64,000 nt of DNA from Escherichia coli (GTDB taxonomy: Bacteria > Pseudomonadota > Gammaproteobacteria > Enterobacterales > Enterobacteriaceae). Below the pieces are notes generated by a model. That model made no database searches and was not told where the DNA came from. It was given only the letters and a program-made list of their open reading frames with translations. The translations under genes and the position numbers were made by a program. Each line of letters begins with the position of its first letter. The stretch's first letter is position 1. Positions 6,922 through 14,612 of the stretch are shown here, one piece after another. The stretch lies in assembly GCF_003334765.1 (NCBI RefSeq), contig NZ_QOWT01000021.1; one strand, given 5' to 3'.

Positions 6922-10468
<3,547 letters not shown>

Positions 10469-10485
10469 ATAGCGCAATATTTCAT

Positions 10486-10528
10486 CGTTGGTGCAAAAAT
10501 GTAACGCACTGTGCACTGTCATAGTGCG
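10486..10528 (+). promoter_or_regulatory. putative NtrC enhancer-binding sites upstream of the glnK sigma-54 promoter
   Basis: Dyads resembling TGCACC-N5-GGTGCA: TTGGTGCA (10488..10495) and TGCACTGTCATAGTGCG (10512..10528), 55-95 nt upstream of the -24/-12 element. Confidence 0.5.
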
Positions 10529-10580
10529 TTTTCATTTTCAAACTTCTTAACTTCCTGCTCTCTTTCTCGTTTTTCATTTC

Positions 10581-10596
10581 TGGCACACCGCTTGCA
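10581..10596 (+). promoter_or_regulatory. sigma-54 (RpoN) promoter of glnK-amtB
   Basis: TGGCAC-ACCGC-TTGCA (-24 GG / -12 GC elements with canonical spacing) about 50 nt upstream of glnK ATG. Confidence 0.8.
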
Positions 10597-10648
10597 ATAC
10601 CTTCTTCGTGTAGCAGAACCATTACCGAATTCTGACCGGAGGGGATCT

Positions 10649-10987
10649 ATGAAGCTGGTGACCGTGATAATCAAACCATTCAAGCTGGAAGACGTTCGTG
10701 AAGCGTTATCTTCCATTGGTATTCAGGGCCTGACCGTCACCGAAGTGAAAGGTTTCGGGCGTCAGAAAGGGCATGCCGAGCTGTACCGGGGGGCGGAATA
10801 CAGCGTCAATTTCCTGCCAAAAGTAAAAATTGATGTGGCGATTGCTGATGACCAACTCGATGAAGTGATCGATATCGTCAGTAAGGCGGCTTACACCGGA
10901 AAAATTGGCGACGGCAAAATCTTCGTCGCTGAATTGCAACGCGTCATTCGTATTCGTACCGGCGAAGCCGACGAAGCGGCGCTGTAA
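10649..10987 (+). CDS. glnK: nitrogen regulatory protein PII-2 GlnK
   Basis: ATG at 10649 (MKLVTVIIKPFKLEDVREAL..) 112 aa, preceded by GGAGGGGA RBS and a sigma-54 promoter; ORF-track 10511 start is an upstream extension. Confidence 0.95.
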   Translation: MKLVTVIIKPFKLEDVREALSSIGIQGLTVTEVKGFGRQKGHAELYRGAEYSVNFLPKVKIDVAIADDQLDEVIDIVSKAAYTGKIGDGKIFVAELQRVIRIRTGEADEAAL

Positions 10988-11016: not shown

Positions 11017-12303
11017 ATGAAGATAGCGACGATAAAAACTGGGCTTGCTTCACTGGCGATGCTTCCGGGACTGGTAATGGCTGCACCTGCGGTGGCCGAT
11101 AAAGCCGACAATGCGTTTATGATGATTTGTACTGCGCTGGTGCTGTTTATGACTATTCCGGGGATTGCCCTGTTTTACGGTGGGTTGATTCGCGGCAAAA
11201 ACGTGCTGTCGATGCTGACGCAGGTGACGGTGACATTTGCACTGGTCTGTATTCTCTGGGTGGTTTACGGTTACTCGCTGGCGTTTGGTGAGGGCAACAA
11301 CTTCTTCGGCAACATTAACTGGTTGATGCTGAAAAACATCGAACTGACGGCGGTGATGGGCAGCATTTATCAGTATATCCACGTGGCGTTTCAGGGATCG
11401 TTTGCCTGCATTACCGTCGGCTTGATAGTTGGGGCGCTGGCGGAACGAATCCGCTTCTCAGCTGTGTTGATTTTCGTGGTGGTATGGCTGACGCTCTCTT
11501 ACATTCCGATTGCGCATATGGTGTGGGGCGGTGGTTTGCTGGCTTCTCACGGTGCGCTGGATTTCGCGGGTGGCACCGTGGTGCACATTAACGCCGCAAT
11601 CGCCGGTCTGGTGGGCGCGTATCTGATAGGAAAACGCGTGGGCTTCGGTAAAGAGGCGTTTAAACCGCACAACCTGCCGATGGTCTTCACCGGGACTGCC
11701 ATTCTCTATATCGGTTGGTTTGGCTTTAACGCCGGGTCAGCGGGCACGGCGAATGAAATCGCGGCACTGGCATTTGTGAATACTGTGGTCGCAACGGCGG
11801 CGGCAATTCTTGGCTGGATCTTCGGTGAATGGGCGCTGCGTGGTAAGCCTTCACTGCTGGGGGCGTGTTCTGGCGCGATTGCCGGTCTGGTCGGCGTGAC
11901 GCCAGCCTGCGGCTACATTGGGGTTGGCGGCGCGTTGATTATCGGCGTGGTAGCTGGTCTGGCGGGCTTGTGGGGCGTTACCATGCTCAAACGCTTGCTG
12001 CGGGTGGATGATCCCTGCGATGTCTTCGGTGTGCACGGCGTTTGTGGCATTGTCGGCTGTATCATGACCGGGATTTTTGCCGCCAGCTCGCTGGGCGGCG
12101 TGGGCTTCGCTGAAGGTGTGACGATGGGCCATCAGTTGCTGGTACAGCTGGAAAGCATCGCCATTACGATCGTCTGGTCCGGTGTTGTGGCATTTATCGG
12201 CTACAAATTGGCGGATCTGACGGTTGGTCTGCGTGTACCGGAAGAGCAGGAGCGAGAAGGGCTGGATGTCAACAGCCACGGCGAGAATGCCTATAACGCG
12301 TAA
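11017..12303 (+). CDS. amtB: ammonium channel AmtB
   Basis: 428 aa multi-TM ORF 29 nt downstream of glnK, signal peptide MKIATIKTGLASLAMLPGLVMA. Confidence 0.95.
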   Translation: MKIATIKTGLASLAMLPGLVMAAPAVADKADNAFMMICTALVLFMTIPGIALFYGGLIRGKNVLSMLTQVTVTFALVCILWVVYGYSLAFGEGNNFFGNINWLMLKNIELTAVMGSIYQYIHVAFQGSFACITVGLIVGALAERIRFSAVLIFVVVWLTLSYIPIAHMVWGGGLLASHGALDFAGGTVVHINAAIAGLVGAYLIGKRVGFGKEAFKPHNLPMVFTGTAILYIGWFGFNAGSAGTANEIAALAFVNTVVATAAAILGWIFGEWALRGKPSLLGACSGAIAGLVGVTPACGYIGVGGALIIGVVAGLAGLWGVTMLKRLLRVDDPCDVFGVHGVCGIVGCIMTGIFAASSLGGVGFAEGVTMGHQLLVQLESIAITIVWSGVVAFIGYKLADLTVGLRVPEEQEREGLDVNSHGENAYNA

Positions 12304-14498: not shown

Positions 14499-14612
14499 GG
14501 GGGCTCTGTTGGTTCTCCCGCAACGCTACTCTGTTTACCAGGTCAGGTCCGGAAGGAAGCAGCCAAGGCAGATGACGCGTGTGCCGGGATGTAGCTGGCA
14601 GGGCCCCCACCC
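14499..14612 (+). ncRNA. ffs: 4.5S RNA, signal recognition particle RNA
   Basis: 114 nt GGGGGCTCTGTTGGTTCTCCCGCAACGCTACTCTGTTTACCAGGTCAGGTCCGGAAGGAAGCAGCCAAGGCAGATGACGCGTGTGCCGGGATGTAGCTGGCAGGGCCCCCACCC read directly; matches the 4.5S RNA as I recall it, including the conserved GGAAGCAGCCAAGGCAG domain IV core. Confidence 0.95.

Follow-up and report, generated by a model that had tools for sequence, protein, structure and literature searches.

How is the glnK-amtB operon of Escherichia coli switched on from the short spacer that separates it from the gene upstream? This spacer covers 180 bp of the E. coli chromosome between mdlB and glnK, at positions 10469-10648 of the window, by which we mean the whole stretch of 64,000 nucleotides that was analysed. 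The original prediction read positions 10486-10596 as the control region of a downstream glnK-amtB operon, and the open reading frame (ORF) list together with RefSeq annotation indeed placed the neighbouring genes in that arrangement:

10466..10468, + strand: mdlB stop codon (ORF list and RefSeq annotation of the identical E. coli locus)
10649..10987, + strand: glnK, PII-family nitrogen regulator (ORF and RefSeq annotation)
11017..12303, + strand: amtB, ammonium channel, second gene of the operon (ORF and RefSeq annotation)

At the identical E. coli locus RefSeq gives the gene order decR, mdlA, mdlB, glnK, amtB, tesB (on the opposite strand) and ybaY. An in-frame GTG at 10511 was considered as an extended glnK start and rejected; it marks a mechanical ORF only, and the RefSeq start at 10649 is served by a strong Shine-Dalgarno sequence. 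A 501-bp query covering 10300-10800 was matched in 5424 of 5426 complete E. coli genomes, with the flanking genes annotated as mdlB then glnK, and in 5033 of the 5424 the identity to the query was at least 99%. With high confidence, therefore, we regard the region as the known and already well-studied glnKp, the nitrogen-regulated sigma-54 promoter of glnK-amtB. The glnKp of E. coli K-12 has the same sequence, with an identical core, distance to glnK (-68 to -51 from the ATG) and neighbours, and no promoter difference was found. The primary papers on E. coli K-12 glnKp and on the NtrC sites of glnK are reportedly those of van Heeswijk et al. (1996) and Atkinson et al. (2002). No Rfam match was found within 10469-10648. 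Elsewhere in the window Rfam matches corresponded to known E. coli features, namely a DnaX frameshift element, the sroB sRNA, the SRP RNA (ffs) and three copies of the naRNA4 repeat, with match coordinates of 31407-31471, 45255-45338, 14507-14603, 39498-39575 and 46636-46814.

The promoter itself had been described as a -24/-12 element of the form TGGCAC-N5-TTGCA, and exactly such an element is present at 10581-10596 on the + strand. The features of the promoter and of the transcript leader are as follows:

10581..10596, + strand: sigma-54 core TGGCACACCGCTTGCA, with TGGCAC (-26 to -21), N5 and TTGCA (-15 to -11) (exact match)
10607..10648, + strand: predicted transcription start (10607, or 10608-10610 if the start is a purine) and 42-nt 5′ UTR (from the position of the -12 GC and the 42-nt distance of Bonocora)
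10638-10644, + strand: Shine-Dalgarno sequence GGAGGGG of glnK

This was the single exact match to TGGCAC-N5-TTGCA in the 64 kb window, as compared to 0.08 expected (8 of 100 shuffles gave one), and its GG and GC doublets lie exactly 10 bp apart within TGGCAC-N5-TTGCW. When one mismatch was allowed the window contained 2 matches, near the 2.45 expected; it is therefore the exact match alone that is remarkable. The next-best sigma-54-like sequence of the window, TGGCACTGGTTTTGCT at 51357-51372, is the published intragenic sigma-54 site IS02 within ybaT (Bonocora 2015, PMC4591121).

Published data bear directly on this element. Zhao included tttcTGGCACACCGCTTGCAATacct, which spans -68 to -51 relative to the glnK ATG, in a list of 18 known sigma-54 promoters, and found glnK expression to be 18.8-fold lower in an rpoN deletion (Zhao 2010, PMC2831329). 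Similarly, a sigma-54 ChIP-seq peak, OS03, was reported at glnK with the motif CTGGCACACCGCTTGCA and a predicted start 42 nt before glnK, which corresponds to position 10607 of the window; this start is marked 'P' in the table of that study, meaning predicted in EcoCyc (Bonocora 2015, PMC4591121). The same motif, CTGGCACACCGCTTGCA, accompanies a gSELEX peak for the RpoN holoenzyme in the mdlB-glnK spacer (Shimada 2021, PMC8743547).

Several features of the transcript leader were also observed. The native glnK 5′ UTR folds unusually weakly (z +1.8). Five of the eight other Enterobacteriaceae spacers that were aligned share 95% identity with its last 22 nt, 10627-10648 (GAATTCTGACCGGAGGGGATCT), which is above the conservation of the promoter core, and an AATTC motif a few bases 5′ of the Shine-Dalgarno sequence recurs in Yersinia, Rahnella and Acerihabitans. 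This block could be a translation signal, or a target for a regulator or sRNA. In addition, GTG followed by TAG occurs at the predicted 5′ end of the transcript (10608-10613), where CGTGT is partly conserved in Enterobacteriaceae; this is probably just the initiating region.

Upstream of the promoter, two dyads resembling NtrC sites had been proposed, and both can be placed at the level of individual bases, on DNA for which no strand is assigned:

10512..10528, no strand: proximal dyad TGCACTGTCATAGTGCG, the best conserved, with its centre at about -87 from the predicted start (best match in the window to TGCACY-N5-RGTGCA)
10492..10508, no strand: distal, weaker NtrC-like dyad TGCAAAAATGTAACGCA, with its centre at about -107 (9/14 of the consensus, 7/8 of its core)

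Together with the promoter, both dyads fall inside the predicted span of 10486-10596. The proximal dyad, TGCACTGTCATAGTGCG, differs from TGCACY-N5-RGTGCA by one mismatch and is the top match in the window. Against the 17-bp NtrC consensus TGCACCAnnnTGGTGCA, used here as quoted by Shimada (2021, PMC8743547), the proximal dyad scored 10/14 and the distal dyad 9/14, and each agreed with the core GCAnnA/TnnTGC at 7 of 8 positions. Their positions at -87 and -107 are within the range of roughly 80-150 bp upstream that one would expect of an NtrC enhancer. A search of our paper library for the dyad sequences returned no occurrence. With up to two mismatches allowed, TGCACY-N5-RGTGCA was matched 9 times in the window as compared to 11.5 times expected from shuffles, so that the dyads alone provide no evidence beyond chance. 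Their weight derives instead from their position and from their conservation in other genera.

Conservation was assessed from a GlnK protein scan with one genome per species, which yielded 79 loci. An element similar to the -24/-12 sequence was found on the glnK strand within 320 nt at 59 of the 79 glnK loci, as compared to 2.05 expected. Among Enterobacterales, the order mdlB-glnK-amtB is kept in 14 loci, and the -24/-12 element is kept in all 15 spacers, 59-104 nt before the glnK ATG, with GG and GC fixed and a variable N5. The proximal dyad is likewise retained in 15/15 spacers as [T/C/A]GCACY-N5-RGTGCG with a variable N5, including those lineages that do not have the T tail discussed below. 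A companion site with a score of at least 8/14 is located exactly 20 bp upstream of this main dyad in 12 of the 15 spacers; the chance of such a score at one fixed position is 0.01. The half-sites are thus conserved as sequence (15/15 spacers) and not merely as pairing potential, and half-site letters that are fixed around inner bases that are free are the pattern that one would expect of a protein-binding dyad. Alignment of nine Enterobacteriaceae spacers revealed conserved islands at the dyads and the promoter with an unalignable spacer between them. Relative to E. coli, the eight others were 76-94% identical in the proximal dyad, 65-100% in the distal dyad and 56-94% in the promoter core, as compared to 27-60% between genera in the middle part between enhancer and promoter (10540-10569), which is also variable in length.

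These comparisons bear on the possibility that an AT-rich spacer has simply produced the motifs by chance, with no function in regulation. Such a reading is consistent with the number of NtrC-like matches at up to two mismatches, which is as high in shuffles as in the window. However, the exact sigma-54 match was expected 0.08 times, and the motifs are kept in 15/15 Enterobacterales spacers even where the flanks drop to 27-60% identity. Published ChIP and expression data have in fact already refuted this reading, and we assign it a vanishingly small probability.

The same published data connect the spacer to NtrC. ChIP-seq with NtrC gave a peak at glnK-amtB, numbered 1, with 39.7-fold enrichment (Brown 2014, PMC4066584). 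By our own reckoning the corresponding interval, 471741-471821, maps to 10568-10648 of the window, over the promoter and not over the dyads, and therefore the peak supports NtrC at the spacer but not at specific dyads. An NtrC gSELEX peak was also reported in the mdlB-glnK spacer, at a resolution that does not single out the dyads (Shimada 2021, PMC8743547). That the two dyads are the bases contacted by NtrC is what we infer. The requirement for NtrC in expression comes from genetics: glnK mRNA could not readily be detected once glnG was deleted, and complementation with plasmid-borne glnG restored it (Brown 2014, PMC4066584). Schumacher (2013) employed glnKp as a 'simpler' reporter of NtrC activity, and NtrC-specific activity was 400-fold higher in ammonium-starved cells. 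Similarly, the orthologous glnKamtB operon of Salmonella Typhimurium (STM0462) is NtrC-responsive and carries the sigma-54 core TGGCACATCCTTTGCAAT, in which the N5 differs from that of E. coli; its promoter gave 1.1 Miller units in nitrogen-replete cells as compared to 1778 under nitrogen limitation, an increase of ~1600-fold (PMC3844500).

It is conceivable that the promoter is real but is driven by another enhancer-binding protein, or that a sigma-70 promoter drives the operon, with the NtrC-like dyads being incidental. The imperfect consensus scores of the dyads (10/14 and 9/14) would be compatible with this idea, as would the finding that DctD250, a truncated foreign activator, fires the Salmonella glnK promoter from solution. 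Nevertheless, native NtrC under nitrogen limitation exceeded DctD250 by ~10-fold in that system (PMC3844500), and the loss of glnK mRNA upon glnG deletion together with its restoration by plasmid glnG (PMC4066584) points to NtrC itself. Moreover, a promoter scan found no sigma-70-like promoter in 10300-10800, and the dyads and their 20-bp spacing are conserved. We therefore consider this alternative extremely improbable. For activation by sigma-54 and NtrC, experiments on this same sequence have demonstrated sigma-54 binding, rpoN dependence, NtrC occupancy of the spacer and glnG dependence. Our own comparison adds that the motifs exist here and that Enterobacterales conserve their sequence, their 20-bp spacing and their helical phase. 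The original proposal of activation under nitrogen limitation through sigma-54 and upstream NtrC sites is thus supported by the published rpoN and glnG dependence and by the binding of both proteins, and here by conservation; it is also the accepted published description of this E. coli sequence.

The helical phase emerged from the distance between the main dyad and the promoter, for which the start was taken as 26 nt after the T of TGGCAC. The centre of the main dyad is at -87 in E. coli and E. albertii, at -97 in two Citrobacter, at -118 in Superficieibacter, at about -131 in one Klebsiella-labelled strain and two Photorhabdus, and at -140 to -142 in three Enterobacter-labelled strains, two Yersinia, Acerihabitans and Rahnella. 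These distances (87, 97, 118, ~131 and ~141) share one helical phase, with R of 0.85 at 10.5 bp, a value equalled or exceeded in 1.7% of random sets for n=5 classes. When the best period between 10.3 and 11.0 bp was used, R was 0.94, which was matched or exceeded by 0.7% of random sets, again from five spacing classes only. A shared phase is consistent with short-range looping in which the enhancer stays on one face of the helix, to the extent that five classes can tell. Across Enterobacterales, then, the length of the spacer changes in steps of about one helical turn, and the dyad sequence, the 20-bp spacing and the phase are kept.

The DNA that would have to be looped has the following description:

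10529..10580, no strand: T-/CT-rich spacer between enhancer and promoter, with two copies of TTTTCATTT (direct repeat)

The copies of TTTTCATTT are positioned at 10529-10537, right after the enhancer, and at 10571-10579, right before the -24 element, and are thereby 42 bp, or about four turns, apart. The T run immediately 5′ of the -24 element is 45-91% identical across Enterobacteriaceae. The pair may reflect intrinsic curvature or bending, or may correspond to the distal CT-rich region of Levy et al. Looping assisted by IHF was considered and dropped because a search of 10529-10580 for the IHF-like site WATCAANNNNTTR with at most one mismatch found none between enhancer and promoter.

In its general layout glnKp resembles glnAp2, which also combines a sigma-54 -24/-12 core with two upstream NtrC dyads, is activated through looping by an oligomer of phosphorylated NtrC and is inactive without activator. 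The two promoters differ in detail, however. The sites of glnAp2 are at -108 and -140 and thus 32 bp apart, whereas those of glnKp are at about -87 and about -107, 20 bp apart, and both glnKp dyads match the consensus less well than the glnAp2 sites do. Furthermore, glnAp2 is overlapped by a sigma-70 promoter, glnAp1, and is accompanied by governor sites of low affinity, whereas glnKp is without a sigma-70 promoter.

A third NtrC-like site was observed in some of the longer spacers. The sequence yGCACC-N5-TCAGGCA occurs ~62 bp upstream of the main dyad in eight spacers (including our loci L003, L004, L005, L009, L010, L011 and L012), at about -203 from the start, or at -180 in L003. At ~62 bp upstream it is absent in E. 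coli, E. albertii, Citrobacter, Enterobacter sp. Ag1, the Klebsiella-labelled strain and Photorhabdus. The E. coli position that matches the third site falls inside mdlB, and the enhancer-promoter spacers of E. coli, E. albertii and Citrobacter are 44-54 bp shorter than those with the third site.

The enhancer also overlaps a second element, which would be read in RNA transcribed from the upstream operon:

10503..10539, + strand: terminator-like element, with an 11-bp stem, a 6-nt loop and the T-rich tail TTTTCATTTTC (terminator scan and inverted repeat)

This element starts 35 nt past the mdlB stop codon and encloses the proximal dyad; its stem is formed by 10503-10513 paired with 10520-10530, including one G-U pair. 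RNA from 10469-10545 was predicted to fold at -23 kcal/mol (z -3.5), a stability that was not reached by any of 200 shuffles. All nine Enterobacteriaceae have an extended stem (-11 to -17 kcal/mol), and 7-9 of the 10 nt that follow it are T. The dyad is also present in Yersinia, Rahnella, Acerihabitans and Photorhabdus, where the 10 nt have 1-3 T and the hairpin is weak. By a terminator score of the d'Aubenton-Carafa type, E. coli is borderline at 0.1, seven other Enterobacteriaceae score 19-36, one Enterobacter-labelled strain scores -2.5, and Yersinia and Acerihabitans score about -75.

Might the dyads then be only the stem of an intrinsic mdlAB terminator, with a role in RNA, and NtrC act through other bases of the spacer? 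The architecture of the element, its distance of 35 nt from the mdlB stop, the fold of -23 kcal/mol at a z of -3.5, and the stem and T tract in 9/9 Enterobacteriaceae, seven of which score 19-36, are all as one would expect of a terminator. On the other hand, the letters GCACY and RGTGCG are fixed and the stem pairs show no covariation; indeed, in Citrobacter a C stands opposite an A at one pair. The four genera with a weak hairpin keep the dyad without the T tail, the dyads fit the NtrC consensus, NtrC occupies the spacer in vivo and in vitro, and the E. coli score is itself borderline. We thus judge it very unlikely that the dyads are a terminator stem and nothing more.

The question of whether the hairpin is an mdlAB terminator in addition to binding NtrC is, in our estimation, about evenly balanced. 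Neither mdlB nor glnK occurs in the published Term-seq supplements that were searched, which therefore hold no data on the mdlB 3′ end, and no paper linking an mdlB terminator to NtrC sites was found in the library searched. Judging from the distribution of dyad and T tail, NtrC binding is probably the older and constant function, to which Enterobacteriaceae have probably added the termination of mdlAB transcripts at the same bases. An origin of the hairpin by fusion of two older elements was considered and rejected as unsupported, since Yersinia, Rahnella and Acerihabitans contain no separate terminator-like site in their tail-less spacers; Photorhabdus has a hairpin after the dyad.

A further element that could act on transcripts from upstream is found next to the start:

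10600..10607, + strand: CT-rich CCTTCTTC just upstream of the start (anti-Shine-Dalgarno potential in read-through RNA only)

Levy et al. (2017) found that a reporter gene transcribed from a promoter further upstream is silenced by a 50-bp glnKp fragment in front of it, in a manner that does not depend on rpoN, and attributed this to a 7-nt CT-rich region centred at -4 that works as an anti-Shine-Dalgarno sequence in reporter constructs (bioRxiv 10.1101/086108). That insulator was first described on the same 50-bp glnKp fragment, with the difference that their work used reporter genes and not glnK (bioRxiv 10.1101/086108). In our predicted fold of read-through RNA (10531-10690), 10601-10608 (CUUCUUCG) pairs with 10637-10644 (CGGAGGGG) and thereby covers the glnK Shine-Dalgarno sequence, whereas the sigma-54 transcript from 10607 would be without six of the eight bases of 10601-10608. 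The computed probability that the Shine-Dalgarno sequence is unpaired falls from 0.46 in the native transcript to 0.04 in read-through RNA for E. coli, and from 0.73 to 0.01 for E. albertii. As compared to composition-matched shuffles this sequestration was clear only in these two species, with 1 of 30 shuffles at or below the observed value; in three other species the signs were weaker (3-4 of 30). Across related genera the anti-Shine-Dalgarno potential was mostly no stronger than in composition-matched shuffles and thus did not prove to be conserved, and outside Escherichia the segment -11..+1 is 27-73% identical. In E. coli the folding model makes it likely that the CT-rich bases would sequester the glnK ribosome-binding site in read-through RNA, which matches the published insulator.

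Taken as a mechanism, sigma-54 RNA polymerase occupies TGGCAC-N5-TTGCA at 10581-10596 and is held there as a closed complex. When nitrogen is limiting NtrB phosphorylates NtrC, and dimers of phosphorylated NtrC on the dyads at about -87 and about -107 would assemble into an oligomeric ATPase ring. This ring would contact the polymerase through looping of the short T-rich spacer and use ATP to open the promoter, such that transcription would start near 10607; for the exact start site, and for looping without IHF, this is the arrangement that we infer. Two secondary layers may then be added. The hairpin and T tract around the dyads would probably end mdlAB transcripts, and the CT-rich bases upstream of the start would mask the glnK ribosome-binding site in residual read-through RNA.

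These layers can be combined into a broader proposal, which we offer tentatively and hold at slightly less than even. Here the conserved NtrC site would serve, in Enterobacteriaceae, as the glnKp enhancer as DNA and as the mdlAB terminator stem as RNA, the stem AACGCA/TGCGTT and 7-9 T having been added to an older dyad. Along with the anti-Shine-Dalgarno bases at -8 to -1 this would provide two layers against mdlAB transcription. The Escherichia lineage, in turn, would have lost the third NtrC-like site and about five helical turns with the same face of the helix being kept.

With respect to the promoter itself there is nothing new. The additions made here are base-level coordinates for the dyads, evidence that they are conserved and share a helical phase, and the observation that the enhancer overlaps a terminator-like hairpin of the upstream operon. 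Only side observations were not found in the literature that we reached, namely the terminator-like overlay, the conserved 20-bp pair spacing and helical phase, the loss of the third site in the Escherichia lineage and the strongly conserved 5′ UTR block at 10627-10648. In E. coli, glnKp serves as a standard reporter for the activity of NtrC, and the GlnK/AmtB pair under its control gates the uptake of ammonium. If functional, the overlap of enhancer and terminator would complement the published anti-Shine-Dalgarno insulator, and would represent a compact case in which one sequence is both a protein site on DNA and a termination signal in RNA.
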